NCBI GenBank assembly: GCA_951406725.2
Contig: OX597822.1
Coordinates: 26,102,001-26,166,000 of the forward strand
Direction of reading: 5' to 3'
Source: Octopus vulgaris
Taxonomy: Eukaryota
DNA length: 64,000 bases
The notes beneath the pieces are model-generated. The model saw only the letters and a list, made by a program, of their open reading frames with translations. It was not told the origin of the DNA and did not search any database. The position numbers were made by a program, and so were the translations under genes. How positions within the stretch are numbered: position 1 is the stretch's first letter; every line of letters starts with the position of its first letter. Positions 539 to 60,537 of the stretch are shown here, piece after piece.

Positions 539-613
539 AATGGGTCAAAAGAATGTACTTCACATCCATAGTATGCATCCATCTCAACATCAAAACTTGA
601 GTCAAGACCAATT
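539..613 (-). CDS. METTL24: copy A exon 4 ([24 protein letters not shown])
   Basis: CAACAG acceptor, GTAAGT donor, 75 nt. Confidence 0.9.
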
Positions 614-1496
614 CTGTTGAAAGACAATATGTATATGATATTTATGTATGTTTGCGTATTGTGTGTGTGTGTGTGTGCATGTGTCACTTTTTCTTGACTT
701 GGCATGATAGGTGTAAACAAGTATCACTGTCATACAAGCGGTGTCTTTTATTTTCATTCTTCTGTGTAAAAATGCCTGGGAATAAGGAAATAATACCTTA
801 CCTGGAAATGGTTAAGGGCTAAGAACATCTAATGTACAAAATTTGCATACATACATATAGGCACAGGAGTGGCTGTGTGGTAAGTAGCTTCCTTACCAAC
901 CACATGGTTCCGGGTTCAGTCCCATTGCGTGGCACCTTGGGCTGAAAGAAGCCCGTCGTATATATGCGTATATATGAGTGTGTGTTTGTGTGTCTGTGCT
1001 TGACAACCGATGTTGGTGTGTTTACGTCGCCGTAACTTAGCGGTTCGGCAAAAGAGACCGATAGAATAAGTACTAGGCTTACAAAGAATAAGTCCTGGGG
1101 GCCGATTTCCTCGACCAAAGGCGGTGCTCCAGCATGGCCGCAGTCAAATGACTGAAACAAGTAAAAGAGTAAAAGAGTAAAAGTGTACATACGTATACAC
1201 ACATACATTTCGTTTTTGGATTTAGTTTGCAAGATTCTTTATGTGAGTTCGTGTATTGAAGCATATTTTGTTGTGTCTGGGAAAACTGATTCTCTATTTA
1301 GTTTCCACTCGTTTATTTCTTTATTTTTACTAAAAATTTTCGTGGCGGCTTGCAACTTTTTCAATTGTCGTTGACTCTGTTATCCGAGATGCGTTCTTTT
1401 TGTTTGTTTGTGCGCGCATGTGTGTGGGTCAGTGTGCGTGTGCATACACATATGTATTTATGTAAGTAAGCATGTGTGTATGTATGCATATATATA

Positions 1497-1529
<33 letters not shown>

Positions 1530-1546
1530 ATATGTATGTATATATA

Positions 1547-1642
<96 letters not shown>

Positions 1643-2341
1643 AATTGGAAGGTTTGGAGATGATGTACGGGTATTATATATTAGAAGAAATGAGGTACTC
1701 AGAAAATCGGACGATTTATATTTACAGATATTTATTTGTATATTACATTTTTTTAAATATATCATACTAGCAGTATCACCCGGCGTTGCTCGGGTTTGTA
1801 AGGGAAATAACTATATAAGCATTTTTAGAGAGTTACTTCCCTTATAGATGCCAATTCGGGCTTTCTTAGCCATTTCTGTTTTGGTGTCTTCAAGCCATGA
1901 AGTCGTTGTTCTAAAAGAATGCTGGTCTCCTTGACAACGCTTTACGCCGTTGATTTCCTTACACTCCCTTCCCCACAGCTTCACGAGGGAGGGAAGAAGG
2001 GGAGAAGCAAACAGGTGCAGGTGTGACCATGGACGCCAACTCCGCCGCCATCGACACACGAAAAATTATGCATTAAAATGGAATAAAAATGATGTTAAAT
2101 TATTTTTAAAATCGTAGACTCATCGTTGACGCGCGCTAATACTCAGACGGGCTCGATATGAATCACGACTATAAGATACCCGAATTTGGTTAAACTGCAT
2201 CGCAAAATGTGGGAGTAGTTAGGAATCTAAATCGAAGGGGACAGACACTCACACAACTACAGTTTTATATATATAGATAACTTAGATCATGTATTAGCGC
2301 TTTCTCCCATTCTAGTGGGGTTTTCAAATCAAACTAAGTTG

Positions 2342-2406
<65 letters not shown>

Positions 2407-2462
2407 ACGTATGTATGTATGTAAGCATGTGTGTATGTATGCATGTGTGTGTATGCATATAT

Positions 2463-2530
<68 letters not shown>

Positions 2531-4237
2531 GTATGTGTGTGTGTACGTTTGTATGCATGTATTCTGCATGTTCATGTGTTTGTGTGTTTGCATGTCTGAG
2601 TGTGTCTGAGTATGGGGTTTTGTGACTATGTACGTGCGTCTGTTATGTTTGGATGTGTGTCTCCATATGTGCCCTTGTGTGAAGTAGCACACTCAGACAT
2701 ACACACACAAGGAGACAGAGGTACACACACACACACACACACACATACACACACATACACACACACACATAAAATCACATACACACGAACACACAAACAC
2801 ATGAATATGCCGAATACATACATACAAACGTACACACATACATACATATATGCATGTATACACATACACACATACATACATACATTCATACATACATGTA
2901 TACTTATGTGTATGCGCACGCACACTGACCCACGCACATGCGCACAAACAAACAAAAAGAATGCAACTCAGAGAACGGTCAGAATCAACGACTATTGAAA
3001 GGGTTGCAGGACGCAGCGAAAATTTTGAAAAAAATAAATTAGTAAATTAAGTGGAAACAGAACCGGTGAGTGTGTTAAATAATAAGGTACAAAATAGAAT
3101 GACTCTCCCCAGACACAACAAGGTCTAGAATCAAAAGGCTTTAGTATGCTTCGCTGGATGTGCAATGTCAGTGTGCATGTACGACAGAGTGTAAGTAATC
3201 TTGAGAGAAAAATTGAGCATAAGAGGTATCACAGTGTGGCGAGCAAGAGAGATGACTGCGCTGGTATGGTCATGTAATACGTGTGGACGAGGACAGTTGT
3301 GTGAAGTGTCAATATTGGAGGGAACTTGTGAAAGAGGTACACCCAGGAAGACATGGGACGAGGTAATGAAGCATGATTTTCGAACATTGAGGCCTCATGG
3401 AGACAATGACAAGTGACCGAGATCTTTGGCGATATACTGTGCTTGAGAAGACTTGTCGAGCCAAGTGAAATCGCAGTTGTGGCTGACGCCAGAGTCGTGT
3501 AACTGGTACTCGTGAAAGGCGGCAAGCTGGCAGAAACGTTAGGGCGCCGGCGAAATGCGTAGCGTATTTCGTCGGCCGTTACGTTCTGAGTTCAAATTCC
3601 GCCGAGGTCGAATTTGCTTTTCTTCCTTTCGGGGTCGATTAGATAAGTACCAGTTACGCACTGGGGTCGATAATATAATCGACAATCCGTTTGTCTGTCC
3701 TTGTTTGTCCTCTCTGTGTTTATCCCCTTGTGGGTAATAAAGAAATAGGTGCTCGTGTCAATGGCATGTAAAAAGTACCTGCAGACGCTAGGTGATATAC
3801 TGTGCTTGAGAAGACCCGTCGGGCGAAATGTATTCGTAATCGCGTTCTGATGTCAGTATCGCATATGTGGCAGCCGCGCCGTTAGCACGTAAAAAGCACC
3901 CTTCTAACTTTGGGTTCCACGGAGGGAGTGACAAGTGGCTGAGACTTTTGGCAATATACCGTGATTGAGAAGACCTCTCAAGTCAAATGAGATCGTAGTC
4001 GTAGTCGATGCCGATGTTTCATGGCTGGCATCCGTGCCGGTGGCACGTAAGCATCCACTGCACTCTTGTAATGGTTGACATTAGGAAAGGCATCCAGGAG
4101 TAGAAACCATGCCAAGTCAGATTTAAATTTGGTGCAGTCCCCCAGGTTACCAGGTTTCTCTTAAACCGTCCAACCCATGCCAGCATGGAAAACAGACGTT
4201 AAATGATTATGATGATGATGATGATGATGATGATGAT

Positions 4238-4404: not shown

Positions 4405-6190
4405 ACACACAAATATACAGTACATATATGTATACACACACATGTATATATATATAAATATATATGCATATGCATACATATACACACACATACTTATAAT
4501 CATTCAGAGATATACAAAGTTTAAAATATAAAAATATCTCAATCATTGATAAAGGCAGTAGAAATTCATTTACCCAAATGCATACACCAAGCAAGGCTTC
4601 GTAGGATGATATCCATTATCCATACAAACATTCCATCCTCCGTCTCCATGAGAACCAACGCGGGCTATTTTGTTACACTTCACCTGAATTTGGCTCATGA
4701 ATCTAAAGTAATATTCAACAAATAAATTATTGATTTTTCTTTTACATGGACACAAGGACATGATTATAAAAGGCTGACAAGAGACATGAAGTGAAACAAC
4801 TACAACTGGGAATGAAAAGCTGCATTATTTGCTTCACTCTGTGAAAGGTTGTTGCTTCTACTCTACAACATTAAACAGACTGACAGAGAATCGCAGTGGA
4901 AACTGTGTAATAGTTCCTCATAGACCATGGAATTTGTTCTGGCTATTGTGTTTTTACATCAAGTCATACCAAAATCAATTTTGCTTTCCATTTTTTAAAG
5001 GTTGATAAATTACAGCACCATTCCTGTATAACAGACTGGAAGAATTTCAAAGTGTTAGATGAGATGCTTAGTGGGATTTATGAGGGACCTTTGCATTTTG
5101 AGTTCTTAGGTGAATTGGTTTAACAATACCACCATCTATTCTTGAGGTGCTTTAAATTGAATTTTCTCTGTTACAAGCATTTTTTCCAGGTTCTCAATTT
5201 GAGATAATTTACCCTCTTCCTTTCTAGCTTAGGTTGGGTAGTTTGACAAGTTCCAATGGATTCAAGGACTGTATCGTGCTCCGATGGCTGCCTTGGCATG
5301 GTTTGTACAGCTGCATGCCCATCCTAATGCCAAATAGCACAAAAAGAAAAAAGAAAGGTAAAAACAAAACAGAGTTCGCTTCGTAAAGCTGAGGCGTAGA
5401 GATTGTTTTATGTTCAGGTTTCAAGAATATTTAACGAAGCAGACGAAATGAAAAGGCGGCGAGCTGGCAGAAACGTTAGCACGCCGGGCGAAATGCTTAG
5501 CGGTATTTCGTTTGCCGTTATATTCTCAGTTCAAATTCCGCCGAGGTTGACTTTGCCGTTCATCCTTTCAGGGTGGGTCGATTAAATAAGTACCAGTTAC
5601 GCACTGGGGTCGATATGATCGACTCAATCCGCTTGTCTGTCCTTGTTTGTCCTCTCTGTGTTTAGCCCCTTGTGGGTAGTAAAGAAATAGGTATTTCGTC
5701 TGCCGTTACGTTCTGAGTTCAAATTCCGCCGAGGTCGACTTTGCTGTTCATCCTTTTGGGGTCGATTAAATAAGTACCAGTTACGCACTGGGGTTGATAT
5801 AATCGACCTAATCCGTTTGTCTGTCCTTGTTTGTCCTCTCTGTGTTTAGTGAGTAGTAAAGAAATAGAAATGAAACAGCTCCAATTAGGATTGTAATCAG
5901 TGTGTCTTGAACTTAATTTCTTCTTCGAAAAATTCAGCATAATTCCAGTTGATAAAAAATATTGATTTATCTGTTACTAATTCATATGAATATTGGGTAG
6001 TTCTTAGGCTGAGTTAGAAACCCAGTTTAACACCACAACCTTCTCCTTGGTTGCCCTTACTCTGTTTAAACATTCAGTCCAGATGTACCAGTTTCTCCTT
6101 GTGCCAGGTTAATCCTGAATGAACAGAGCAATGCTCAAAGGCATTCAAGCCGTGAATAATTTGTCTTTATTTATATGCACTTAATATTAC

Positions 6191-6244
<54 letters not shown>

Positions 6245-8210
6245 GAAAACTCACAGCTGCCAACATGGCTGAAAAAGATCGGTGTAAGTGTGAAGGTAGA
6301 ACACCTACAAAATCACCATTGCTTGGAACTGCAAGAATTCTGTAGGCGCAAGAGTGGCTGTGTGGTAAGTAGCTTGCTTACCAACCACATGGTTTCGGGT
6401 TCAGTCCCACTAGGCAAAAGTCTTCTACTATAGCCACGGGCCGACCAAAGCCTTGTGAGTGGATTTGGTAGATGGAAACTGAAAGACGCCCATCGTGTAT
6501 ATATGTGTGTGTGTATGTGTGTGTGTGTGTGTTTGTGTGTCTCTGTTTGTCCCCTCCACCATCGCTTGACAACCGATGCTGGTGTGTTAACGTCGCCGTA
6601 ACTTTGGCAAAAGACGATAGAATAAGTACTATGCTTGCAAAGAATAAGTCCTGGGGTTGATTTGTTGGACTAAAGCCGGTGCTCCAGCATAGCCGCAGTC
6701 AAATGACTGAAACAAGTAAAAGAATAAAAGAATAAGCTTATATTGCTGGGTATGATGGAAAGTGCCAGGTGTCCACAGCAAGCAGATTAAGGTGACACTT
6801 GTTTCCTGGTCATGCTTCAAGAACCCTGCGAAGAATTCTTGCAGTTCCAAGCGCTAGTGATTTTGTAGGTGTTCTACCTTCACACTTGCACCAATCTTTT
6901 TCATCTATGTTGTTAGTTGAGTGCCGATACTTCCAAGTGCACCAATTACTATTGGTATCACGTCTACTCTCTTAATTAACCACAACCTTCATATTTCCCA
7001 ATTTAAATCGTCGTAGTTGTTTATTTTTTTCTTCTTCTTTCACATTAATCTTGTTGTCGATAATCATACATGTTCTTTCTTTTTTATTCACCACAGCAAT
7101 GTCCGGTTTCCTATGTCTGGTCAGGTGATTGCACTAGATCGTTACATCCCACAGGATTTTGCAGTTTTTATTGTCGGTGACTCCCTCTGGGGTTTGTTCA
7201 TACCACGTCTCTGCTTTTTGTAGGCCGTGATTTCCACAGAAATTATTATCATATCTATAAAAGGGAGGATGTGTGTGCGTGTGTGTGTGTACGTGATTGT
7301 AATTTATGCACATCCACAAATTAGCATGCATGTGCTCAAATTTTAGGAGGACATTTATCAACAACCTATCTGGGTTTTGTCAACTTATTTTTTTCCCGGG
7401 GCACCCGCGGATAGGGTAAAAATCTATTTTCGACTATTTTCAGCCATAGCTTTTAACCATAACAAATATCAGCCATTACTTTTTGATGGCGTCTAACAAA
7501 AAAAAATAAGATAAAGAAAAGTGGAAGAAGGAGGCAGAGTTTCACGGGAAACACAAAGTGAGAGATGGAGAGAGAGAGTAAGTGACTATGTTCATAAAAA
7601 AAAATGTAAAATGTTTTTGTTTTTTGTTTTTGAAAGGCACACTATATTTTATAATCACACAACAATTACAATATATTTATTTTAAATCATTTATTTATTT
7701 TAAATCATTCATCTTTCTTCCCCCTCTATCTCTCTCACACATTACATTGGGTGTGAAAGAGTTTTGTTTTTATTTTACGCCGAGTAAAAAAGTGTTTTGT
7801 TGACAATCCATTTATTTAACAACAAAGAAACAATGAGGTGAATAACAATTTGTCAGTGAATTACACAATATAAATGGGTACAATTTGCGAAGCTTCCGCC
7901 ACACCCCACTCCGTTTCACGGACCACAAAAAGAGTTTTGATGCCAGAGTAGTTGACTCCATGCAAAAAAAACGTTTTTTTTTTCTTAATGAAAATTGTGC
8001 AAGTGTTAATCTACAAATTTAACATTTTTTCCATTCATTTCTGTTTATGAACATGTATGCGTGCACAAAACATGCAATAGGTGTACGTACGTACGTGTGT
8101 GTATGTGTGTTCGTGTCTGTTGCCCATATATATCTATATTATATTATATATATATAATATATACTATATATATCTATATTATATTATATATATATAATAT
8201 ATACTATATA

Positions 8211-8293
<83 letters not shown>

Positions 8294-8434
8294 TGTATGT
8301 ATGTATGTATAATATAACTAATTTCAACGGGTTTTGCCCAAATTTGACGTCTATATTAGTTTGGTTTGAAATAAAGAACTTGATTAGCTTAATAATCGTA
8401 ACTTAATCCCGGGCAAGGCCGGGTTATACTGCTA

Positions 8435-8509
<75 letters not shown>

Positions 8510-11500
8510 GAGTAAGAGAGCATTTCATGCCATCAAAGTGACACAGAGATACAAATATACAAAGCCAAATATACCCATCATGGCTACCCGTCTGAAAAGG
8601 GTACACCAGGCACATGCATTACAAGCATATGTGCACGACATAGTGATCTCATGTCAAGATAAATAGCGCACAACGTTGCATGTGGAACCCAGTTAGAATT
8701 TTCTTCAGGTTGAGTAGCCCATCCTACTCAAAAGATCCCTGAATAAGGTTTGTTTAAGGATGATGGTCAAAAATCCCATGTTTCCAGGGGTGAATTATTC
8801 AAACCCCAAAGAATTCCTCTCAACACATGACTATGATGCTCCCCCACTACGTCTGCTCGCGATCAGAGATGCACATATCGTCAGCCACTAAGGGACATGC
8901 TCAACTGGTTAAGGTCAAGCAATTGACAAGCAAATTTATAGTATTGAGCAGAATAATTGCTGTAGCACTTCTTTTATATCGGGACAAAATAGGATATGGG
9001 AACTACAGTGAAGGCAAAAGTGTTGCATTCGCAATTTAAAGATTGTGGCTTCGATACCCACACCAGGTGGTACATTATGTTCTTTAGTAAAACGTTTTAT
9101 TTGACATTGTTTCAGTTCACTCAGCTGTAAATGATTTCCAACAATATCTGGAAAGTTAACTCTATGGCAGACTGACAACCCATTCAGAGACAATGTTGTA
9201 TTTTCAGAAATATTAAATTTCTAAATATCTCATAGAGATATGTACGGTGGTGGAGCGATAGAATGGTTGTATACTGTCAATTTAACGTGACAGTAGGGGA
9301 TTACACCACCGCTGTTTAGCCCTAGGAAGCATCGACGCCTCCTGATGGTTTCGACACATTTTTTCCTGTGTCCTTATATATTTACGAAGGGGAGACAAAT
9401 ACCCCCAGCAGCCAGGCCTGCATCTACAGACACGCATGTTTCAGGATCTTTCTCCATCATCGGTCTAGAGTAGCAGAAGCCCGCCAGCCGCAGATGAATC
9501 TTTATTATAGGCACAATGGCCCGAATGAAGAGGGGACATAATAATACAGGACATGGGGTACATATAACAAAAATACAAAAAGGATGGTATGACAATGAAA
9601 TATTTATAATGAATTAAATGGAATGGCTTACAAGCCCCGCAAAGCTCGCAGTTTCATTTACAATTACAATTGTGCTATCCGGGGCGTTCATCCGTAATGT
9701 AATCCTCCTGTTCTATAACACCTGGCAAACTGTCATATCGAATGTATTGCATTACGCCTACAGCTATATTTGAATACACATTTATTAATTTCATTACTGT
9801 CTCTCTTTCTACAATTGCCGCCTTTATTTGGTCATCGAATATCTTCGGGTTCAGTTTTACTCTAGTTAGATTTTTCATATTCGCTAATTTCTTCTCAATT
9901 TCTTTGTCCTTTTTGTACAACATTATAGCTTTGAGATTTCTTCGTTTTGGCCTTCATCCTTCCTTACATATTTTCAGTTGTTCTTCCATTTTTCTTTCCC
10001 ATTCTTTCTCTTCCTCCCACATTGAAACTTCACTCACTTTCGTTTCTGTATCTCTCTCTTCGTGCGTTCGATCCTCTATCTCGTCGGTAGACTTCTTTTT
10101 AGCTTTTTTCTTTTTTTGTGCTTTGGGTGGTGATTCCACCCGCGTTCTCTTTCTATCCTCTTTTTCTTCTGTTCTTTCCTTTTCTTTCTCCTTCACCAAC
10201 TCGTCACCACTTTCCACATTATCTGTAGTCACGATTTCCTCTTCCGCTTGCAATTCCACATTCGCCTTTTGTAACTCCTCTGTCAAAGCCTCCAGTATTA
10301 TCGTTTTCTCTTGTTCTTCTCTTAGCGGATACATATCCTTCATATGGCCTCTACTTTTACATTTGTAACACACTGGGGGGTCTCCCCTCCACCACGACTC
10401 TGAGACGTGTCTCGTCGGGGAACACCAACTCCTCTGGGATGTTATACAGGTCTGGCATGGTTATTTGAACCAAAGCCTGCACCGCATAACCCCACCAATT
10501 TATTTCTTTCGACTTTTCTACCTTCAGTATGTCGACGCTCTCTTTGCAGTTGAATATTATTGCCGCTACAATTCTTTCCGTGTCCAGTTCCGGTAAAATT
10601 TTACTAATCCGTATTCTCACTGCTCTTTTTCCACAATAGCTAGGTAGTAACACCCATTTTTCGGATTTCAATACTGTCGTGGCGTTTCTTTTCGCTTCGT
10701 CTTCGTTTTCAAAACGAACGTCTACTGTCGCGTATTTTCTACCTCTATTGTAGAAGGTAGTTTTTCCTTTAATTTTCCTTCTCGATTTCTTCCACCTCTG
10801 CTACTTCTATTCTCTTCGAAACCACACTCCACGTTCTGTACGTTATAATTCTCTTCCCAGCTTCTTTCACCTCGTCTTCAGGTGGTGTGACCCTCAGACA
10901 ATCACCTTCCTTCTTGAAGCTGTCGTAGTACTTCCTCAAACTCTCCTTCTCGATAACTATTTCTTCCAACTGTAGTACGGATGAACGCCCCGGATAGCAC
11001 AATTGTAATTGTAAATGAAACTGCGAGCTTTGGGGGGCTCGTAAGCCATTCCATTTAATTCATTATAAATATTTCATTGTCATACCATCCTTTTTGTCCC
11101 CTCTTCATTCGGGCCATTGTGCCTATAATAAAGATTCATCAGCGGCTGGCGGGCAGTGTTTGTGTCGGTTATTTTGTATTACGGTTATTGTGCATTGCGG
11201 TTGGAAGTTGGATTTTGTTGTTGGAAGTTGTTATGGCCCGGTGAATTGTTGGAGTTTTTGTTGGGTATGCAAGCCCAAACTTATGCGGGAGCAGCAGGCA
11301 AAGGCCTGGCTGCGAGCGAACTACAGGCCTCTATGGAGAGATTTAAACCCGGTTTCATTAAAAGACGTAACCTGACTTTATGGCAGAAGGAGTGCCGACA
11401 GGCACTCTGGCTGATCCACAAGGTGGGCAAGGCCGGCAGCGGGAATACCATCTCGATGTTCTATAGAGGGCTGGTAGAGGCAAAAAATGACAACGTCCTA

Positions 11501-14146
11501 GGAGGGGCTCTGGGGTTCGATGAGAACCAACTCTCCAACCTGTTTAAGAAGACTTTCAGGTCGGGGTATTTGGACAATTACCAAAAATCCCTGTCCTGGC
11601 AGTGCTATAGGAATGCATTACCTGTTCGCGATAAGTTATCCAGGCACGGAATGTCAGTGCCACCGACGTGTCCAAGACCTGGGTTGGACGATGAAACCAT
11701 TCAACACACTTTTGTACAATGTCGGGAGCTGTCAAGGTTGATAAGTTACGTTGAACACGTGTTGTCGCATCTGGGACGAGTACAGCTGTCGGCTGAATCT
11801 ATGATAAAGATGATACCGCCAACTGGACTCTCAAAGAAAGGTAAGGCTTGTTTTTACTGTACGGTGGCAGTACTGAAAGAGTGTGTGTGGAGAACCAGAA
11901 TGGAAGGTCTAGTGACAGAGTCCTTTGTCTCTGGCCCCGGTTTGTTAAAATACTTCAGATATCATCTGAAGAGCAAGATGAGGTTGGAGAAGAGGATCCT
12001 GCCACAGAAAGAGTATATGAAACGTTGGAAGGATGTGATGAGAAAGGTGGGTGTTAGTAACCCAGCTTAATCATCGAAGAAAGGAAAAATTAGTTGCTGG
12101 GCTTTATAGGCTGCCGGGTTCAAAATTCGAAACCGGCACTTCCCATTCCTTTTCATTTTACATATGTTATAATGTCTAATGATTTTTTTTTGCTTAAAAA
12201 AAAAAAAATAAATAAATAACACGCACTAAAGTTCTCGTTATAAAGGCAAAAGTAAGCCAAGTTTTCGTTCATGTTACATTATAATTAAATTTTTATAATT
12301 TTCAAGTATCATTCGAACTCTCATAACATTCTCTGTAATTGTTTGTCTTGTAATGTCCAATTTTATGTAAAATCGCATGATTGTAATAAAGATTTCATCT
12401 GCGGCTGGCGGGCTTCTGCTACTCTAGACCGATGATGGAGAAAGATCCTGAAACATGCGTGTCTGTAGATGCAGGCCTGGCTGCTGGGGGTATTTGTCTC
12501 CCCTTCGTAAATATATAAGGACACAGGAAAAAATGTGTCGAAGCCATCAGGAGGCGTCGATGCTTCCTACTGTCACGTTAAATTGACAGTATACCACCGT
12601 TGTATTTTCACTTATTTGCAAACCTTTGAAACCAGTTTAAGCTCTCTGCCTTTATGAGTCCCAGAATTCATGACTAACCTAAGTAATAGTAAATATCGGA
12701 CAAGATTATCCAGTGCATCTTTTGCCTTTGAAGGCAGTGAGGTGTTTTGGGGGTACAATTTGGTGCTATTTCTTGCAAGTTGAACGGTCACATAGAGGAG
12801 CCAGTCTTGGATCATAAAAATACTTGTTGATGCTGTTGTTAAGTCCTGGGCAACTAATGGGTAAAAAATCACAGATCCTAACAATCAAAACTCGCTTGGT
12901 TCAATATAGTGGCGAAACACACGTACTTATCTACCATGTTCCATTTCCTTTGACAAAAGAGCTTCAGAATAATAACTTGACTTGCTCAATGAAGCAGACA
13001 AATTCTTCTACACACAATTTCCTAAACTTCCTTCGAGTGGAGAAATCCCAAACTTCAAATCTTAAATTTAAAGACAGCATGCCCCCAAAATATAATGGAA
13101 TGCCATGGATACAATGATAATGTATTAATGAGTAATAGTAGTGATAGAGAAGGTACATGCAAAGAGACGAAAATTTACAAGAGCAGTAAATGCATGTGTT
13201 AAAAGTAGGAAAATTTACGAAGCCCTTAAAATTAAGAAAAATAAAGAAATATAGAATATATGAAAACTTCTAAATCAGAAAAATTTATGCAAGTTTAAAT
13301 TTTGGAAATCATAGAGTCTTCAAAAGCAGAAGAACCAAAGGTAGTCTTAGAAATCAGAACAACCAACAATGATTTAAAGCACTGCAGGAATAGCAAATAG
13401 ATAAGAGAAGAGTCTTAAGATGTTCGTGTTGTTCTCAATATCATTAGTTTTAAAACACATGAAAACCAGCTGATTACCATTGAAAGGTTTCTTGTAATAT
13501 ATTTAACGAAGAACGTGTAAAAGATAAAGGAATGAAAGAATATTACCTGTGGTATATCTCTTCAAGATCTGATGCAGATTTTGCATCTAAATTTTCTTCG
13601 GACGGTAAAATCTAAATAAGAAAACAAAATATTGAAGATAGAGATAAATAACAGAATGTTTCGCGTATTTTCAGGGTTCAGGATTTGAGATCTAAGAAGA
13701 TAGTTAAAAAACTTGAATTTATGACGACTTCAAAGATCAAGGGCAGATCTATCACCTCATTGGTTCCCTGTTACCCACAAATGAACAACCACAGTTCCTC
13801 CAAATTTAATTTATGAGTGATGTAGGACAACAAACCCGAAGGAGGTGTCAATATTTCAGATGATAGGTCGTGTTAGACACAGTGCCGACTGCTGCAAAAG
13901 AGAATATATCCACTGGCATCTTCTCGGTGCGTTCAAAAATCTCATAATCCCCACAGATTAGGGCCTGAAATACTCCAAACACACGCATAGGATGTGGCTT
14001 AGACGAATTAGCCCATCATTTACTGCACAAATGTTTTGTTGTCAATGCTGCACATTCCCATATCACCTGTTTCAGTATAACTGTAATATATTATATACAA
14101 ACTATAACATTTTAATCCCGAGCAACATCGGGTGTCTCTGCTAGTA

Positions 14147-14230
<84 letters not shown>

Positions 14231-16113
14231 TGCCCCTCGTTATCGAGTATGGCCATTGCACGAAGCTTAACTGTTACTGGTGCTGTGATCGAATGTGACT
14301 TTTTAGCCCAGCCAAAGATCTACAATGTCTTGTACAAAATTGGCAACTAAAACCTTTACTGGTAATAGCCGACTGTAGTTGTAACTGGACTTCATGTACC
14401 TTTGCATGTCGTTTAATTCCTCCTGCCGAATTACTCTCTCTTCCACATGCCTGGCAGATATGATTAGTATGGTGTGTTACACCACCACCAGTGGCCAGGT
14501 TGTCACTCATCTGTCTCGTTTTATGACTACGAAGATGACTCTTGAGTCCAGCTTTACTGAGGCAGGGTCTTGCACAGACATTGCATGTCAGCATGAAAGG
14601 AAGACACTTCCCTTCTGGAAGTGTAACAGCGATGCCCTTCCTGACATCCCTCCTTACTTTCTCATGTGCAACTCGAGCTTTCTCAAAGTGGTTGTCCCCT
14701 CATGCACAATCCTTCTCCACCTGCTACGATCAATAGCTATGCCTTCCCATGTGTCAGGAGAGATGCAAGCATCTCTTAAGGAAGCCTTCAGCAAGTCCTT
14801 ATACCTCTTTTTTGGTTTATGTGGAGTTCGTTCTCCTTTAGCTAACTCTCCATAAAAGAATTATTTTGGCATCCTTGAATCCTTCATCCTGACCAGATGA
14901 CCACTCCATCTGAGCGTTTGCTTTAACACAAGAGCTTCTATACTTTCACACCGAGAGCCTTCCAATATTCAAGCTCACTGATGCGGTCCTTCCACTTAAT
15001 GCCATAGATCCATCTGAGGCACATCTGATGGAAACGTTCCAGTTGTTTAAGGTGGTATCGATATGTGACCCACGTCTCGCAAGCATAGAGAAGAGAAGGG
15101 AGCACACATGCCTTGTACACCTTTATCTTTGTCTTTCTGCATATGTCTCGCCGACTTCAGAGGCGCTTTTCTAGCCTTCCGAAAGCAACACTTGCTTTCC
15201 TAATTCTATATGGAATTTCATCATCCAAATTGCCATATCTATTAATAGTGCTTCCCAGGTAGACAAACTGATCAACTACATCAAGTCGTTTACCATACAC
15301 ATAGATATTTGGTACACTATACTGCTTACCAGGGTCAGGTTGATGCATGACAACAGTTTTCTTGAGATTGACTGTCAATCCTAAGACAGTGCAAGCATCA
15401 GAGAATGCATTCAAAATGTGTTGCATATCAATCTCTGTGTGTGCTACTAGCTCACAATCATCTGCATACAAAAGGTCTCTTATGATAGAGGTAAATACCT
15501 TTGTTTTTGCAGCAAGGCGCCTGATATTAAATATGCTGCCAGAAGTTCGATAATGAACGTAAATACCGTATCTGCAGTTTCTGAATGCAATACAGAACAC
15601 CTTCGCGAAATATATGGAAAATAGGGTCGGTGCCAGAATATCCCTCTGTTTCACTCCATTTTGTATTGAAATGGGCTCCGACATTTTCCCCCTAACATGC
15701 CTTCATGAAAAGACCGAACCAAAGCAAGGAACTTTTCAGGACACCCAAGTTTCTGGAGGACTTTCCACAATGCTTTTCTATTGATGGTATCAAAGGCTTT
15801 TGTCAGATCGACAAAAACCTGATACAAATCCAGACCCTGTTTCACACACTTTTCCTGAAGCTGTCTAGCTGAAAAGATTATATCAGCAGTGCCACGTCCC
15901 ACACGAAAGCCAGATTGACTTTCTGGAAGAACACAATCTGCAATGTATTTCAGCAGATGATCCAGAAGTATCCTGCATAAAACCTTTCCTACAGCAGACA
16001 GCAATGATACTCCCCTATAATTACCACAATCATTCCTGTTGCCCTTTCCCTTATACAGGACCACCATTACTGCATCTCTCCAGTCCTCAGGTACAGATTC
16101 ACTAGCCCATATA

Positions 16114-16166
<53 letters not shown>

Positions 16167-16995
16167 GAGTGTATTTTTACCTTGTTAACAATTAACACGG
16201 AAAAAATAAATATTTGCAATCTTCTTCTCAGGAGAAGATTGCATTGTTTATACCATTTATTCTTTTGAATAGTATCAGTGGAATTTTCGAAACATGTGTC
16301 GAAAGTAAAAATATTTGATTACACCTGCGTTAAACTCCATTTATTTATTCATATATATATATATATATATCATTGTGTCTGGGGAGAGCCATTCTGTTTT
16401 AATGCCTTATTAATTAACACACTCACCAGTTCGATTTCCACTCATTTACTTATTTATTTTTCCTATAATGTTCGTTGCTTCTTGCAACCTTTTCAATAGT
16501 CGTTGACTCTGTCCGTTATCGAAGCTGCGTTATTTTTGTATGTTTGTTTGTGCTCACATTTGTGCTATATATTCGCTCTTCTCTTCAGAGTTATTTTATT
16601 ATTGCTTTTATATTATGTCAATTGTTTGGGAACATTTCATTTTAGTGTTTAGAATCCAACGCTCTGACCACTAAGCCATATACCTTTACATCTTACTTGT
16701 TACTCTTCTGTTATTTAGCTCACACTCTATTTTTACATATATATTTCTTTACTACCCACAAGGAGCTAAACACAGAGGGGACAAACAATGACAGACAAAG
16801 GGATTAAGTCGATTACATCGACCCCAGTGCGTAACTGGTACTTAATTAGTCGACCCCGAAAGGATGAAAGGCAAAGTCGACCTCGGCGGAATTTGAACTC
16901 GGAACGTATCGACAGACGAAATACGGCTAGGCATTTCGCCCGGCGTGCTAACGTTTCTGCCAGCTCGCCGCCTTATTTTTACATATATGTCTTGA

Positions 16996-17074
<79 letters not shown>

Positions 17075-17577
17075 GTGTGTGTGTGTGTATGTAAGAGGGT
17101 ATTGTAGTACGCTGGAAGCATTGTGTATTGTCTGTGAAATGTAACATATCTAGAATGCCACAACAATGCTGAGTGTACTATGATAACTGTTATAAATAGT
17201 TTAATTATTCATAATCTAATATAATATTTCGGAATATAAAAGTTCCTTCTTCAGATATTGCTAGGAAGTAATGGAATTACTGTTATAGCCGGTTTTCTAA
17301 GTCTGTCGGAAGCGTTCCTGTAGTGGTCTCACGAAGTTCTTTCCGAAATTCCTCATGAGAAGTGCGTGAGGGTAGTCATATCTTGAGCTTATTTGTGTTG
17401 ACATATCCGTAGCGCTGCTCCCAAGCTATGTATCATACGCGCATTTTTTTATATAATGTTTTGTTACTTGAGCATGTTACCATCGTGCGTGCAGAGGGTC
17501 GATGTTGTTAAATCACTGCTTAGGGTGATTACCGCACCCTAAGCAGGTAATGCATAAATTAGTTTTTCCGAGGTACA

Positions 17578-19019: not shown

Positions 19020-21615
19020 AGAGGACATAATAGATGTCCACTAAGTGGACATCTATTATGCTAGATGTAAACCCCATATATTCTGACCACTAAGAAAAAA
19101 TTGTTCTCAAGAAAATTCAGCAATTTTTCTGAATCTTCAGATTTTTCAATATGCTAGGTCACTGGTTTTAGATTGATATTAATCAACTTAATATTCAGTT
19201 TATCACCCTTATTATTTAATTTTAAATTTAAATAACCATGTTCTCTAACCGGCAAAATTCACTGCAGAGAATTATCTTCTGCAGAATTATTTCCAGTATT
19301 TTGACGCACCAAAACGAAGACTTTTGAAATATAATCCTAAATGTAATCGGTAGAACTATATGCATGTTCAATCTTATGCGGACGTCTCGTGTACAGTTCT
19401 GTAAATTATATTTTGTTATGACGATCACACTGATGAATTGCGGACATTTACGTAAGTATTACGTAAGTAGTAACAATGAAACAATGAAGATATACTACTA
19501 GCCATAGATGAGGTGGACGCAAACTCAACTACTGGGTCTGATGGTTTCCCAGCAATCCTCCTCAAATCAGGTAAGTGTGCCCTGGTAGAACCCCTCCAGA
19601 TTCTCTTCCAAGGCTTTTATGCAAATGGCAGATTGCCAAGCAAGCTGAAGGAGGGAATAATATGCCCAATCCATAAAGAGGGAAGCAGAGCAGATGCCAA
19701 AACCTATAGGCCTATCTCTCTGACTTCACACATCAGCAAAGTCATGGAACGGATAGTCAGAGGGAAACTAATCGCATTCCTTGAAGAAAATAACTTCGAC
19801 CAGGTAGGAGCTGCCTGACCCAGCTCTTACAACATTATGACTAGGTACTGAGGCAGTTACTCAACGACTCAAATGTGAACGTAATATACGTTGATTTTGC
19901 AAAAGCTTTTGACAAAGTGGATCATGGTATGATATGCCACCAACTGCGTGACCTTGGCATAGCTGGAAAACTTGGAGAGTGGATACATGACTTCCTAAAA
20001 AATAGAAGTCAGGCAGTAGTGGGCAATGGAGCCACTTCAATGAAAACACAAATAGTGAGCGGTGTTCAACAGGGCACTGTCTTGGGACCACTGCTTTTCA
20101 TAGTGGCCCTCTCAGATATGCCCTCAACTACCCGGATAGCCACCCTTGCTAGCTACGCAGACGATACGAAAGTCTCGCAGAAAATGCAGAACCCCAGCGA
20201 TATTGCACATCTGCAAGAGTTGGACTCAATTTACAGATGGGCTGAGGATAATGATATGCAGTATAAAGCTGAAAAATTCCAAGCCCTGCGCTACCAGCAT
20301 CCAAAACTGAATAGTAAAATTACAGAGTACACTGGTCCACATGAGTTTACAATCCCAGTGCCTAAATCAGTGAGGGATCTGGGCATCAACATGAATGATG
20401 ATACCTCTTTCCAAGTGCACATTACCAGGATGGCGACAAAATGCAGACGACTGGCTGGATGGATCCTAAGAACATTCAGAACCAAAGATAAGAAAACCAT
20501 GATGGTCCTCTGGCGGACATTCGTCCTCAGCCGCCTGGATTACTGCTCACAGCTATGATCACCCACCAGTGTGAGATTAACAGCTGACCTTGAAGCAATC
20601 AAGAGAAGATTCACAAAGAAGATCGTCTCTTTCCAACAGCTCAGATACTGGGAAAGGTTGAAACAGCTAAGACTCTACTCCCTGGAGCGAAGACGGAAGA
20701 GGTGTGCAGTAATATACATCTGGAAGATCCTGGAAGGAATTGCGCCAAATTTTGGCATTGAAAGCTACACCAATGCCAGAATTGGTCGATACTGCATAGT
20801 GCCAAAGATCTCAGCAATGTCATCGCGCCTCAGGACCAGTTACTGCACAGAAACCCTACAGCTTTTTTATATTCTCCCAAAGAGCCTGGGGACCCTGCAC
20901 AAGGTAGATGTAGGCGTTTTTAAATCAAGGCTGGACCTCTTCATGTCGAGACTCCCAGATGAACCGACCTCACGGCAAGAGGTGCAAATGAGGGTAGCTA
21001 CATCAAACTCTATTCTTCACCAAGTGCCACATATTGGAGGAGGCTCTCAGTAATAAGAGTGTAGCAGTGTGCATCAGAATGTCCAGAGCTCTGAGCTGAA
21101 ACTACAAAACATATATATATGTTGTTGGCATCCTTTTGTCTCGGGAAACAATGGAGTTACGCATAAACTAATCCAGTCTGGTTTTTACATTTCATGTCCT
21201 CTCCAGTCTTGCGCAGGCCTGGACTAGATGTAAGAAAATCCTGGGTAGCCCAATCGTCAAGATTCCTCTCTCGACCTTGCTGACGTAGTCCAAAGGAGTG
21301 CAGAGCATTACGTTTGGCACCAGCTTGGTTGCAGGAGCTGCCGGAAGAGTTTCAAGCCGAACACTAAACCACCTACGGGGCTCCACTCCGGATTTCTTTG
21401 AAGGTCGTCTCCTTTCCATAACCCTGGATAGGGTCCTATACCGGGTACTGTCAGCCGGAGCCAGCTGAGCCCGGGACTTGTGTCAGGCAGGGTCGTTACT
21501 CCCTGAAGTAGTGAAGAAAATCGCTACCCACTACCTATATATATGTGGTGGTATATATATATATATATGGTATTTACATATATATATATAATATGGTATT
21601 TATATATATATATAT

Positions 21616-41400: not shown

Positions 41401-44400
41401 ACAGTACTTTTTAGTACTAGATACACACATACAAGACAGAAAGAATGAGTGAGAGAGCAGTATTACAATTTATTAATTGAATACAATTGACATAAATATT
41501 GTTCCCCTCTTTATACACATAAAAGGAAATATAGCCACACACATAAACCAACAGAGAGGAGATGGAGAAAGTGAAAGAAATATTAAAACGTCTGATATCA
41601 AATAAGACAGCATTGGATCAGTGTTACCAAATAGGCAGTACCAAAACAGTTGTGACAAAATGTCTCATCTCTAACATTTAGTGTCAGCCCATCACTAGGT
41701 GAGACAAGCTGACACTGAATCAGCTTCGCTGACTGACAGATGACGGTCGTTTAGAGAATGTGCGGGCTAAGACTACGAACCTTCACTAGTCAGTTAAGGT
41801 GAGACAGTGTCACGTGACAACTTGTGAGGGCTGCCTGCTGGAGCCAAGCAGCAGGTATTTAAAGGGATCCTATAAAGGAGCTGTTGTGGTAGCAGACCAT
41901 GAAACACGGTTGTAATTCCTCTATACCAATACGAGAAGTAGTGAGGACCAATCTCACGACACAGGTTTTTATAAAAGACCTTAACTAGTGGAAAAAACAC
42001 TGTGTTAAAACATGTCCATCCTACCCGTATTAGGATAGAAAATACAAAATTTTCAGTGCTACTTTGGCGTGATCTACAAGGGAGATTACTTTAGGCTACT
42101 TTTTAAATTATTTTGTACATACTTAGAATTGTAAATGTATTTTTTTCAAAATTCTTTCTATTTTGATAATAAGAATACCATACAATAATTACAAAAAAGG
42201 CCCTTAAATCATACAAAATAAATTTGCTCACGTAGAGCACACGGAAAGTAGCACTAACATAAAGTAAACTAAAAAGTAACCTAAAGTAATCGCCCTTTAA
42301 ATTCTAACTCTCACACTAAAGTGATACCTTTCTTTTTGTTAAATGATGTTTCTCTATCGTCTTTAGAAACTAACATGCATTACATAATGTAGTAAGGAGT
42401 GGCTGTGTGGTAAGTAGCTTGCTAACCAACCACATGGTTCCGGGTTCAGTCCCACTGCGTGGCACCTTGGGCAAGTGTCTTCTACTATAGCCTTGGGCCG
42501 ACCAAAGCCTTGTAAGTGGATTTGGTAAACGTAAACTGAAAGAAGCCTGTCGTATATATGTATATATATGTATGTATGTGTGTGTGTGTTTGTGTGTCTG
42601 TGTTTGTCTCCCTAGCATTGCTTGACAACCGATGCTGGTGTGTTTACGTCCCCATCACTTAGCGGTTCGGCAAAAGAGACCGATGGAATAAGTACTGGGC
42701 TTACAAAGAATAAGTCCTGGGGTCAATTTGCTCAACTAAAGGCGGTGCTCCAGCATGGCCGCAGTCAAATGGCTGAAACAAGTAAAAGAGTAAAAGAGTA
42801 TAGAAAGTGAAATGGTCATTGTTGGAAAGACTTTGATCAGGTCTGACCTGGATTTAAAACAAATAAACTAATAAACTAAACTACATGTAACATAAACTAA
42901 ACTACATTAACATGTAGCATAAACATAAACGAAACTACACATAACATAATTCACCTGCTTCATAGATACAAGTTAAATAATAGGTGCTAGCACCATTGCC
43001 ACCACAAACAAAAGAAGGTACTTACAATGGATCAAAGGAATGCACTTCACAGCTAAAGATTTTCTGCATTTCAACATCAAAACTTGACTCAAGACCAATT
43101 CTGTTGAAAGAAAGACAATATGTATATGATGTGTGTCTGTGTGCATGCATGCATGCGCATTAGTGACTCTTTGTCTTAACTTTGTATGATAGCTGTAAAC
43201 AAATGTCACTGTCATACAAGTGGTGTCTTTTATTTTCATTCTTCTGTGTAAAAATGCCAGGGCATGGAGAAATAATACCTTACTTGAAAACATCTAAGGG
43301 CATCAGGCTGTAAAAAATCTGCCTCAACAAATAATGACTGACCCATGCATGCATAACACAAATCAGTATTTCTGGGATGAAGAATTTTTATATTATGAAT
43401 TAGCCAGAGTAGTGATCTTATCTTAGTTGTTGCTTTTCACTATGTTTCAGCTGTGTATGCTCCACCTTTTTCAGGTAGATTGTAACTGACCTTAGTAAAC
43501 TTGCCTAGGATTGAACTCCGAACTTCTAGGCAACTTCACTGCATTAGCTAGCACCTTTATCCACTATGCTAAATCCATAGGCAGTAACAGTCATTTTTAA
43601 GGTTTATAAAGCTTCATTGATTGTCTTATGTTGTCTCCTTACTGATTGGATGACACAATTCTATATTGGTGAGATTAGGAATTTTCATATTATGTATAGT
43701 GAAGGTACATGGCTCAGTGGTTAGTGCGTTGGGCTCAAAATCATAAGGTAGTGAGTTCAATTCCTCGACCAGGTTGTGTGTTGTGTTCTTAAGCAAGACA
43801 CTTTATTTCCCTCAGCTGTAGGAATGAATTGCGATGTCACTGGTGCCAAGCTGTATCAGCCTTTGCCTTTCCCTTGGATAACACCAGAGGTGGCTGAGTT
43901 CCTTTCAAGCGTTGGACCTCATAGAAGCAAGGTGGCCAAGCTACTGAGCTTCATAGAGGTAAAGTGGCTGAGTTATTTTTGAGTGTTGGGCCACATGGGG
44001 GCAAGGTGGCTGAGTTCCTTTTGAGTGTTGGGCCTCATGGAAGCAAAATGGCCAAGTTACTGGGCTTCATGGAGGCAAATAGGCTGAGTTCGTTTTGAGT
44101 GTTGGGCCTTATGAAGGCAAGGTGGCTGAGTTCCTTTCATGCATTGGGCCTCATGGAAGCAAAATGGCCAAGTTACTGGGCTTCATGGAGGCAAAGTGAC
44201 TGAGTTCCTTTTGAGTCTTGGGCCTTATGAAGGCAAGGTGGCTGAGTTCTTTTTGTGCATTGGGCCTCATGGAAGCAAAATGGCCAAGTTACTGGGCTTC
44301 ATGGAGGCAAAGTGGCTGAGTTCCTTTTGAGTGTTGGGCCTTATGAAGGCAAAGTGGCCAAGCTCCTTTCAAGTGTTGGGCTTCACAGAGGCAATGACAA

Positions 44401-52177: not shown

Positions 52178-52589
52178 GGATCTTTTCGGTTTGACCGGCA
52201 GTTTTTTAAAATAATTTCCACGTAACTAAACACGTTTAAATTTCGTATACTGGTAGAATGTGTTTATAAAACATCTTTTTCTCTTGCCTTTATTGAGAAA
52301 ATTCTATAGTTTGTAAGATATTTGTTGTTTTTTTTCTTCAATTTCTGCAATTTCAACCAATCAATGACGTCTATTGAGGTGAAAACATTCTGTGCCGTAT
52401 GAATATGTCCCTCGTTTAAGAAACAGATTGGGTTTATTTACATTTCTGAAGAAAAAAAGATACGCTTCCCCCCACACCTAACCCTAAAACAGATTGAAAC
52501 GCAATAGATCGATACTAGTGTCATAATTATGGGTGACAATTTCATATGACACCGCTAGAAAAAAACTGCCGTTCAAACCGAAAAGATCC
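52178..52589. mobile_element. GG-terminated MITE (Merlin-like); same family as 57941-58374 and 63032-63466, opposite orientation
   Basis: Terminal inverted repeat GGATCTTTTCGGTTTGA.CGGCAGTTTTT; absent from the copy A upstream region. Confidence 0.85.
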
Positions 52590-52668
52590 CCTTTCCTATT
52601 TGGGTTGCTTTATTAGAACAAATATGGTAATTTTTAACAGAGTCATACTCTGGGATATGGAAACAGTC

Positions 52669-53283
52669 GGATCTTTTCCTTTTGAACGGCACATGTCAAC
52701 ACAATTTCTAGTTAACTAAACACTTTAAAACTTCGTATACTGGTAGAATGTGTCAAAATAAAACATTTTTTCTCTTGGCTTTCTTGAGAAAATTGTAATT
52801 CGTTTGTTTAACGTAGTTTAGTTTTTCGAATTTTAACCAATGAATCGCCTCTAATTGAGCTAAAATCATTTGCTGCGTCTAAAACTGAGACAACATCTTG
52901 TCACTAACCTAACCTAACCCTTTTTTAGCCTTTTTTTTTTTTCTTAATTGTTAATTTAATTTAATTGTTACGTGTGTGTCTAAATTAAATTAACAATTAA
53001 GAAAAAAAAAACGAAAGGCTAAAATTTAGGGTTAGGGTTAATGTTAGTGACAAGATGTTGTCTCAGTTTTAGACGCAGCAAATGATTTTAGCTCAATTAG
53101 AGGCAATTGATTGGTTAAAATTCGAAAAATTAAACTACGTTAAACAAACGAATTACAATTTTCTCAAGAAAGCCAAGAGAAAAAAATGTTTTATTTTGAC
53201 ACATTCTACCAGTATACGAAGTTTTAAAGTGTTTAGTTAACTAGAAATTGTGTTGACATGTGCCGTTCAAAAGGAAAAGATCC
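52669..53283. mobile_element. fold-back MITE, 615 bp, almost entirely palindromic, 8-bp TSD
   Basis: AAACAGTC|GGATCTTTTCC...GGAAAAGATCC|AAACAGTC; empty site in copy A at about 26775. Confidence 0.92.
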
Positions 53284-53614
53284 AAACAGTCAACTAAATT
53301 GTCTTATTTCTTTACAGGTATTATTTCATCTCACCTGAGAAAAAGCTTAGTCGACCCCGAGGGCACTTGAATGCAGTGGGACGTAAATTAAATGTTACAA
53401 AATAATTTCCAATTCTGTCTTATCGGAGTTGTCGTTCATGCTTGTAATTTTTGGTTAAATTTTAGAGTTCTTGTCTCCTCACTGCTTGGAATAACCACAG
53501 TTGATCGAAGCTTATCAATTTATTGTAAAGTAATCCTACAATCTATTTATTGTATTCATCTCTAATATGAAGTAATAACCATTAAAATGAGGTTCTCTCT
53601 TTCTCTCTGTCTCC

Positions 53615-57940: not shown

Positions 57941-58374
57941 GGATCTTTTCGGTTTGAACGGCAGTTTTTTCTAGCGGTGTCATATGAAATTGTCACCCAT
58001 AATTATGACCCTAGTATCGATCTATTGCATTTCAATCTGTTTTAGGGTTAGGGTTAGTTAGGGTTCGTGTTAGGGGTGGGGGAGAAGGGTATCTTTTTTT
58101 CTTCACAAATGTACAGAAACCCAATCTGTTTCTTAAACGAGGGACATATTCATACGGCATAGAATGTTTTTTTACCTCAATGGACGTCATTGATTGATTG
58201 AAATTGCAGAAATTGAAGAAAAAAACAACAAATATCTTACAAACTATAGAATTTTCTCAATAAAGCCAAAAGAAAAAGATGTTTTATAAACACATTCTAC
58301 CAGTATACGAAGTTTTAAATTTTTTAGTTACCTAGAAATTATGTTAAAAACTTCCGTTCAAACCGAAAAGATCC
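57941..58374. mobile_element. Merlin-like MITE with 8-bp TSD GATTAATC
   Basis: GATTAATC|GGATCTTTTCGG...CCGAAAAGATCC|GATTAATC. Confidence 0.9.
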
Positions 58375-59499
58375 GATTAATCAAATTCATTCCCACTGCA
58401 TTGCGCGACGGTGCATTTATAAGCATGCAAGCACCTCGACAATCTTTCAGAAATCCTATTAATGATATTCTCATTGGTCCACAAAAAAGACAGGGGTTCC
58501 TCGGAGCGGAGTCTGCATCTTCTGGAAAATATACTATACGGTTGCGCGTATCTTGTTATTGACCAAGTTAGATCATATTTAATTTTATCTTCCTTAAGGA
58601 TGTGACAACTGCAGAGAGAGAGAGAGAGAGAGATGCCTGCAACAGCAGTGTGGGCTAGATTGACGCGGAAAAATGTATTTTGCTCAAGGACACAAAAAAA
58701 CAGCTGGTCAAAGAATTGAAACTGCAACATTATGATCGTGACCCGAACATTTAATCTTATTTTCTTTCCACTTTAAAGCAGGGTCGTCGTAGCCATAACG
58801 TTAATTTTATGTTCAGCTTCTCCTCAATTAGATTGTCGAGTCAGGCCTTAATACGATTGAAAATAAAGGAAATGCTTAACTTCATGTACACTCAAGTAAA
58901 CTTTAACCTCATATTAAGATTATTTAAGCGCTTATGGATACTAAATTATATTTTACATTATTGATTAAGAAGAAGTAGATAAGAAAAAATAACTTGCATT
59001 AATAAATCAAATGACACTGTTATCAAGGTAAGTAACTCTAATTTGACATTATAAAGTTGTTTCCCTTGCAAAAAAATTGGTTTCACTTAATGGTGTTAGT
59101 TGATGTTGCCTATTTCAGTTCTAATCAAAGCATTCTAAAACAAATTATTTATGATTATATTATCCACCGTGTGTCTCGTTTTTGAAATTGTATGGTATAG
59201 TTTTGAGAAGAATTTGGTTGATAACTTTTTTGTACATCGTGTGATTATGACAAGGTTCCCCAACTAAATGTTATAATGGCTAAGAATATTCATCTAGTAA
59301 GCAAGAGATGTGAAAGTTAGACTTTATCAGCACTTCTCATTGTTAATATTCACTCTTGAATTCTCATTTAGCATGAATATCGTTAAACATTTAAAAAAAA
59401 TAAAATTTGTAGTTGTTCTATAACCGACGTACTAAAGATTCTGCCAGCTGCCACCTACTTCGCCTCTCCGTTCTAATATATTTATAAAATCGTTATCAG

Positions 59500-60138: not shown

Positions 60139-60537
60139 AGTAGCTTGCTTATCAACCACATGGTTCCTGGTTCAGTCCCACTGCGTGGCACCTTGGGCAA
60201 GTGTCTTCTATGATAGCCTCGGGCCGACCAAAGCCTTGTGAGTGGATCTGGTAGACGGAAACTGAAAGAAGCCCATCGTATATATGTATATATGTGTGTG
60301 TGTGTGCGTTTGTGTGTCTGTATTTTGCTCAAAGACACAATGGAACAGCTGGTGTGTTTACATCCCCGTAACTTAGCGGTTCAGCAAAAGAGACCGATAG
60401 AATAAGTACTGGGCTTACAAAGAATAAGTCCTGGGGTCGATTTGCTCGACTAAAAGGCGGTGCTCCAGCATGGCCGCAGTCAAATGACTGAAACAAAATC
60501 TCTCTCTCGCTCCCTCCCGCCTTATCTTCAGTATATC

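Follow-up and report, generated by a model that had tools for sequence, protein, structure and literature searches.

A repeat-rich 64,000-nt stretch of the Octopus vulgaris genome (GCA_951406725.2, OX597822.1:26,102,001-26,166,000; referred to below as the window, whose own numbering is used for all positions) contains a fold-back insertion at 9195..12610, in which pieces of long interspersed nuclear elements (LINEs) lie between the inverted arms of a high-copy repeat with a hammerhead-like motif. Our analysis suggests that this repeat, already loaded with a LINE, was probably pasted into its present position by a Penelope-type enzyme acting in trans, a reading to which we assign a probability of about 0.62. 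If it holds, the locus would represent the footprint of one retrotransposon class exported by another.

The outer frame of the insertion fits a Penelope-like element

Self-comparison of the window revealed an outer target-site duplication of 12 bp, with a left copy at 9195..9206 (+) and a right copy at 12599..12610 (+). The two copies are identical at 12/12 positions, and the chance of finding such a 12-mer at these placements was roughly estimated to be 8e-5. Inside the duplication the inverted arms 9323-9507 and 12384-12569 are identical at 184/186 positions, and their homology reaches the right end of the insertion, spanning deletions of 29 nt and 19 nt in the right arm with microhomology at each of them. 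Since the homology continues past both deletions, the arms are longer than 200 bp. When the arms were aligned, the right end fell at about 9244-9246 of the left arm, so the left end has 37-39 nt more. This one-sided tail (9207..9245, minus strand) forms two small hairpins in the predicted fold, and position 9207 could represent the outer start of reverse transcription. At 10975/10976 the arms are joined head to head: the cut-off minus-strand frame of an open reading frame 1 (ORF1)-like sequence abuts an inverted copy of 9479-9696 from which 39 nt have been deleted.

The original prediction, made from the letters of this DNA, had described an insertion bounded by a 12-bp duplication, with inverted ends of more than 200 bp, about 37 extra nt at the left end and a 5'-truncated ORF1 joined at 10975/10976 to an inverted copy of its own 3' end. 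All of these features were reproduced, the inverted part being shortened by the 39-nt deletion, and the duplication, the inverted arms and the one-sided tail bear out the Penelope-type geometry that had been proposed for the outer frame. As in Penelope-like elements (PLEs), the inverted ends are made by an inverted 5'-truncated copy, the tail is confined to one end and has the expected length (30-40 nt), and the target duplication is short and not accompanied by poly(A).

The insertion appears to have struck a repeat of the host. The left flank, 9010..9194 (+), resembles a short interspersed nuclear element (SINE): positions 9020-9138 match another SINE-like copy in the window at 43726-43831 (E 6e-6), and in the contigs of 4/4 sequencing runs the flank is multi-copy right up to the duplication. 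When the right flank was searched as the continuation of the same SINE, the best match within the window had an E value of 0.052, and profiles for three SINE-like families found in the window gave no match to either flank. The proposal that the insertion split an older SINE was thus upheld on the left side, whereas on the right side the same SINE was not recovered. Farther upstream, 8700-8990 is a very high-copy repeat, of which many internally deleted variants were seen among the contigs.

Contigs from four sequencing runs (X1, X5, X7 and X12) were aligned over 8700-10050, a region that includes the left outer junction, with the central and right junctions lying outside. Among the matches listed, the left junction was present on contigs of 3/4 runs, with 0/324 differences in X1, 6/350 in X5 and 1/317 in X7. 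Long inverted repeats are prone to artefacts, and the range of the contigs would be compatible with a fold-back that arose during assembly or library preparation. However, three deletions (19, 29 and 39 nt) and four substitutions distinguish the arms, which makes a fold-back of the reads an unlikely source. In addition, the 12-bp duplication is exact at both ends, the contigs that carry the left junction come from three studies, and at least half of the sequence words of 8600-13200 are present in 5/24 runs listed. No listed run that holds these words is recorded as RNA, X12 being an RNA run by conjecture only. An artefact of this kind therefore seems scarcely credible.

The frame could also have been produced by the LINE machinery alone, if a read-through LINE transcript had transduced the repeat at its 3' side and undergone 5' inversion on integration. 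Inversion of the 5' part by twin priming is an L1-type mechanism, the coding content of the insertion is LINE-type, and a 12-bp duplication would suit LINEs as well. However, inspection of the sequence showed poly(A) at neither outer end, and both ends lie in the repeat at a distance of 37-39 nt, which is the signature of a PLE tail. Moreover, the overlap of the arms exceeds 400 nt, and the SINE target does not look by eye like the landing site of the LINEs described below. We consider this origin highly improbable.

The terminal module carries a hammerhead-like motif

The left arm of the repeat (the module) occupies 9246..9478 on the minus strand, with a hammerhead-like core at 9463, a TATA-like box at 9380 and an AC-rich stem-loop. 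The right arm occupies 12414..12598 on the plus strand and contains the motif at 12423-12469 and the TATA-like box at 12512, together with the 29-nt and 19-nt deletions. The TATA-like box, the only one in the module, lies downstream of the motif. The AC-rich stem-loop at 9207-9330 has a predicted fold with a z score of -3.97, and none of 200 shuffled sequences was equally stable. The right arm stops in the 3' strand of this stem-loop, and its end may correspond to the inner start of reverse transcription.

The motif consists of the core CCGAUGA, a helix II of 3 bp, an extra U, GAAA, a helix III of 2 bp that ends in a near-palindromic loop, GUC and a helix I of 6 bp with one mismatch, and in the right arm the cut is predicted after 12463.

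Two non-autonomous LINE derivatives are stacked at one site

The longest LINE piece, at 9499..10975 on the minus strand, is a 5'-truncated derivative that holds ORF1 only. Its frame, with a CCHC knuckle and an RRM-like part, is interrupted by three apparent frameshifts and ends with a stop at 9675-9677, which leads directly into a 3' untranslated region (UTR) of about 175 nt with AATAAA at 9506-9501; no ORF2 is present. The zf-CCHC match in this frame has an E value of 0.0028, which is below the curated cut-off, and in the Atlas the frame scored 0.91 against an RRM_1 cluster (18% of members) and 0.85 against PRE_C2HC. The unit resembles HAL1, in that ORF1 passes straight into a 3' UTR that is multi-copy in 4/4 runs, with the identity of ORF1 being drawn from weak matches. 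A second, shorter copy, which comprises the last codons and the 3' UTR and has the 39-nt deletion, lies head-to-head with the first at 10976..11134 (+), and the two copies are 98% alike. The presence of the ORF1-like piece in both arms suggests that it likely belonged to the template that was copied.

The second derivative (11155..12393, plus strand) begins with about 160 nt of non-ORF2 sequence, followed by an unbroken ORF2 C-terminus, a 3' UTR and AATAAA at 12385. The C-terminus spans about 250 codons at approximately 11315-12070 and contains a zf-RVT domain (E 1.5e-8). It is 46% identical to a protein (P0001) with RVT_1 and zf-RVT domains, and one of its relatives comes from Argonauta hians. 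The C-terminal zinc motif and the likeness to an ORF2 that bears a reverse transcriptase (RT) agree with an origin of the unit in the Tx1/L1 group. Tx1 is used here as a putative clade name for these LINEs, as the units themselves hold no RT. None of the 164 high-scoring segment pairs started before 11315, though 31 of the matched proteins extend more than 25 residues further upstream; all 152/152 fetched proteins match the ORF2 piece by construction. Because homology to ORF2 starts only at about 11315, the first 160 nt or so of the unit do not belong to ORF2, and an internal deletion of the unit is probable. The N-terminal part might represent the start of an ORF1, but a portion of what had first been assigned to it, from about residue 64, proved to be ORF2.

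Further searches for relatives yielded nothing: longer relatives of the ORF2 piece were found among 0/3591 candidates in a protein search, which is weak evidence, and relatives of the N-terminal part of the unit among 0/1 candidate, for which the Atlas gave unnamed clusters only. Alignment scans with ORF2 confirmed 0/61 viral and 0/43 prokaryotic candidate stretches.

Both LINE units end at one and the same site just upstream of the hammerhead-like motif. The 20-nt landing site occurs three times, at 9479..9498 (-), at 11135..11154 (+), presumably the 5' member of the 20-nt duplication that brackets the ORF2 unit, and at 12394..12413 (+). The copies that flank the ORF2 unit are 19/20 identical, and each of the three copies follows an AATAAA-bearing LINE 3' end, with two different 3' UTRs being involved. 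The arrival of two different units at one site, together with the 20-nt duplication, suggests that the LINEs likely entered the repeat through their own target preference.

This arrangement does not agree with two parts of the original prediction. The cargo had been regarded as one Tx1-type LINE; it consists of two non-autonomous derivatives, one with ORF1 only and the other with the ORF2 C-terminus, stacked at one site, and a single twin-primed LINE can be rejected because two different units with a 20-nt duplication between them are present. The module had been presented as a Penelope-like carrier, whereas the stacked units and the duplication point to target-specific insertion of LINEs into a repeat and away from a purpose-built carrier.

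Elsewhere in the window, 59490-60140 (+) is a 5'-truncated relative of ORF2 with a 3' UTR resembling that of the ORF1-only unit. The likeness between the 3' UTRs of this 59.9-kb LINE and the ORF1 unit was reached in 0/200 shuffles, and that of the other two pairs in 4/200 and 3/200; as the sequences are AT-rich and the shuffles were simple, these values are a hint at most.

The module is far more abundant in the contigs than its neighbours

The summed contig depth in X1 was 116,030-883,727 over the bins of the module, 5,059-7,761 over 9482-9665 and 600-3,495 over 9666-10050, with 39.7 for a flank contig; X5, X7 and X12 gave profiles of the same shape. Summed contig depth is no copy number, and we read it only as showing that the module is far commoner than its neighbour. 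Between the bins 9436-9481 and 9482-9527 the X1 depth dropped about 15-fold, which implies that most copies of the module have no ORF1 unit beside them. The possibility that the module is simply the 3' UTR of a LINE was discarded, since two distinct LINE 3' UTRs end at it and its abundance in the reads is far higher than that of either neighbour compared.

The same data bear on a dedicated chimeric family, the strong form of the original prediction, in which the module and the LINE piece would form a stable composite dispersed over many loci by PLE machinery. The 3' UTR of the ORF1 unit is indeed multi-copy in all four runs, and the module adjoins the ORF1 unit in both arms. However, the depth drop at 9482 is hardly expected of a stable composite, and two LINE units that share a site and enclose a duplication are what separate insertions would leave. 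In addition, an X12 contig of a diverged relative starts at 9499, the presumed boundary between LINE and repeat, although a single contig is weak evidence. Such a family appears rather improbable.

The two arms share rare letters

The letters of the arms were compared with those of the family at eight sites, taken from among 40/275 rows of the X1 contig comparison. Both arms carry C at 9427/12465 and at 9452/12440, where G accounts for 99.9% and 99.6% of the aligned X1 depth, respectively. At 9352 both arms have a minority letter (the family letter reaches 79%), at the polymorphic sites 9578 and 9621 they agree, and at 9349, 9632 and 9639 the left arm alone departs from the family letter. The two rare letters common to both arms indicate that the arms of the module likely derive from one source copy. 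Moreover, helix I would be complete with the letter that the family has at 12465, which suggests that the ribozyme of the source copy was likely weakened.

For the ORF1 unit the comparison gave a different picture, as none of the four sites checked showed a private letter common to its two copies. This leaves room for the independent insertion of an ORF1 unit into each arm and thus for an origin with no hitchhiking at all, in which an empty two-armed repeat came first, LINEs then struck the landing site of each arm and a deletion removed the palindromic centre. Targeting alone would account for the stacked units. However, such a history requires two strikes by one subfamily, given that the copies are 98% alike, and a deletion that took the 5' end and the 5' duplication of each copy together with the entire centre, whereas truncated copies joined head-to-head are the ordinary pattern of PLEs. 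It therefore seems rather improbable to us.

Proposed origin of the insertion

From the geometry, the duplications, the coding content, the relative abundance and the shared rare letters observed at the locus, we infer the enzymes, the read-through, the ribozyme activity and the order of events as follows. An ORF1-only element of the Tx1/L1 group would have landed at the 20-nt site of a source copy of the repeat. A transcript would then have passed the AATAAA of the ORF1 unit into the repeat, and two changes in the ribozyme stems of that copy may have eased this read-through. The RT and endonuclease of a PLE would have cut the SINE with a 12-nt stagger, and complementary DNA (cDNA) synthesis would have begun on both strands, from two starts, separated by 37-39 nt, that lie in the AC-rich stem and the tail. 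The two cDNAs would have been truncated at lengths of about 1.77 kb and about 0.4 kb, respectively, and joined head to head at 10975/10976. Finally, the ORF2 unit would have been inserted in place at the landing site of the right arm, producing the 20-nt duplication. This late insertion is the most likely course, by about two to one over the alternative that the ORF2 unit travelled with the rest and was left out of the left arm through a jump from one copy of the site to another; the left landing site has mixed letters, which would be compatible with such a jump. Hence the idea of a Penelope-type module moving LINE cargo is sustained in part: the geometry of the frame and the presence of the ORF1 piece in both arms speak for it, but the ORF2 piece was perhaps never carried.

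Several observations weigh against the reading of a LINE-loaded repeat moved by a Penelope-type enzyme. The contigs across the left junction extend 23 nt beyond the duplication into the tail, which is below the 31-letter bridging rule, and contig coverage is confined to 8700-10050. As noted above, the two copies of the ORF1 unit had no private letter in common at the sites checked. The evidence for target specificity comes from one locus, and the window contains only one further ORF2 relative (59490-59926, 56% amino acid identity to the ORF2 unit), which is followed by a SINE and not by the landing site. A hammerhead-like motif is present in both arms, as had been predicted, but its core is a variant with two departures from the canonical form (C at core position 4 and the extra U before GAAA), and Rfam gave no ribozyme match in 8400-13400 at E values up to 5. 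A relaxed descriptor, written after the motif had been seen, found three sites in the 64 kb compared with a mean of 0.017 in 60 shuffles. In addition, Pfam searches on three frames detected no coding remnant in the left module, and a metagenome scan with a 23-letter motif of the module found no autonomous PLE, with RT and GIY-YIG in its reading frame, that shares the module, the one match (L001), in a bacterial response-regulator gene, being due to chance.

The probable weakening of the ribozyme also raises the question of whether the hammerhead gates the cargo. In such a three-level chain of parasites, LINE derivatives would land just upstream of the hammerhead of a retrozyme, self-cleavage would normally separate them from the Penelope starts, and a damaged ribozyme, as hinted at by both arms here, would permit their export by the Penelope enzyme. 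We consider this reading unlikely. If true, site-specific LINEs would have a recurrent second route of spread, leading to sites that they cannot target, and the enigmatic hammerhead of PLEs would have a cargo-limiting role by restricting the amount of upstream RNA that is carried.

Other repeats in the window

A second, unrelated hammerhead-like motif (CUGAAGA...GAAA) was detected by the descriptor scan at 17190-17430 (-), with its core at 17254, downstream of a decayed reading frame. This region may represent the 3' end of a different Penelope-type family; Pfam searches on three frames at 17.3-17.6 kb gave nothing useful. Decayed LINE RT frames at 15157-16184 (-) and 19845-21053 (+), which by eye are RTE-like and CR1-like, are unrelated to the insertion. 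A tandem repeat with a period of about 116 bp (43888-44394) lies right behind a tRNA-like SINE head at 43705-43830. A family of repeats of about 435 bp, 88-93% alike, is represented at 52178-52590, 57941-58374 and 63032-63466 and by partial copies at 52667-52807 and 53081-53284. The A/T-rich stretch 12196-12265 in the 3' UTR of the ORF2 unit weakly matches two of these repeats.

Comparison with known systems

Octopus vulgaris is reported to have 30 recently active Penelope families and 13 L1-Tx1 families (PMC13282606). PLE insertions are known to contain an inverted 5'-truncated copy and a tail of 30-40 bp at one end (PMC8557442), both of which match the present locus, and PLEs have inverted pseudo-long terminal repeats (pLTRs) with duplications of 8-10 bp (PMC3846280). 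In the anole PLE, reverse transcription has two internal starts, both of them in an AC-rich stem-loop, and the sequence that separates them constitutes the tail; cutting and extension affect both strands of the DNA (PMC11167929). The two starts in an AC-rich stem-loop match both ends of the insertion here, and if our reading holds, a single insertion would have recorded both start points as the anole in vitro work predicts. The hammerhead proved dispensable for insertion in that system (PMC11167929).

Minimal PLE hammerheads are highly variable, and the base between positions 9 and 10.1, the G10.1-C11.1 pair and the palindromic loop 3 described for them (PMC4209133) fit the motif of the octopus module. 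The module also resembles non-LTR retrozymes and non-autonomous PLE derivatives (PMC7229834; bioRxiv 10.64898/2026.07.22.740005; PMC4209133) in being short, non-coding and high-copy with a type I hammerhead-like motif, and PLEs have been proposed as the movers of animal non-LTR retrozymes (PMC7229834; bioRxiv 10.64898/2026.07.22.740005). It differs from them in that the tandem hammerhead units typical of non-LTR retrozymes are absent from this locus and the core is non-canonical, while LINE cargo does not figure in the accessible part of their description.

ORF1-only and bipartite non-autonomous LINEs are exemplified by HAL1, HeT-A, Ag-Sponge and derivatives of RTE and Vingi (PMC5786205). The first unit is like HAL1 and HeT-A in that ORF1 runs straight into the 3' UTR, and the second, like internally deleted LINEs, has kept the 3' part. 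The accessible portion of that source contains no Tx1-clade example, and the second unit retains in addition about 250 codons of the ORF2 C-terminus.

Both the movement of foreign DNA by PLE ends and the nesting of Tx1 LINEs in other transposons have been published. Each ingredient is thus already described, and it is their combination at this one decayed locus that is new. In the literature open to our search, which includes few subscription papers and Repbase reports, no account was found of Tx1-type LINEs that enter PLE hammerhead repeats or ride on them.

The closest precedent for the frame is Adineta vaga, where a nonribosomal peptide synthetase (NRPS) gene lies between Pen3a pLTRs and PLE-mediated transfer in trans was put forward (PMC3846280; PMC6431247). 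In both cases the terminal repeats of a PLE, of which one is inverted, enclose foreign DNA, a short duplication accompanies them and a tail may or may not be present; the terminal repeats would serve as cis-elements for an enzyme acting in trans. In contrast to Adineta, the cargo in the octopus belongs to another retrotransposon class, has a fixed entry site with a duplication of its own and occurs in each of the two arms. An empty allele and a partner open reading frame were demonstrated in Adineta, whereas the present case is known from the sequence of the locus alone.

As regards the cargo, Tx1-clade LINEs are known to target transposons, namely Tx1L in Tx1D, Tx1-Mar and SINEU-3 in Mariner-N4_AMi, and Tx1-8_Crp in LTR elements, and SINEU-3, which is mobilised by Tx1, forms tandem insertions with a duplication between them in its Mariner target (PMC4494074). 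The octopus locus is similar in both the entry into another mobile element and the tandem insertions that enclose a target duplication. Hitchhiking was posed as a question for SINEU-3, and the test made by its author favoured independent insertion (PMC4494074). In the octopus, by contrast, the host is a ribozyme-bearing repeat of the PLE type, and the locus suggests one real hitchhike.

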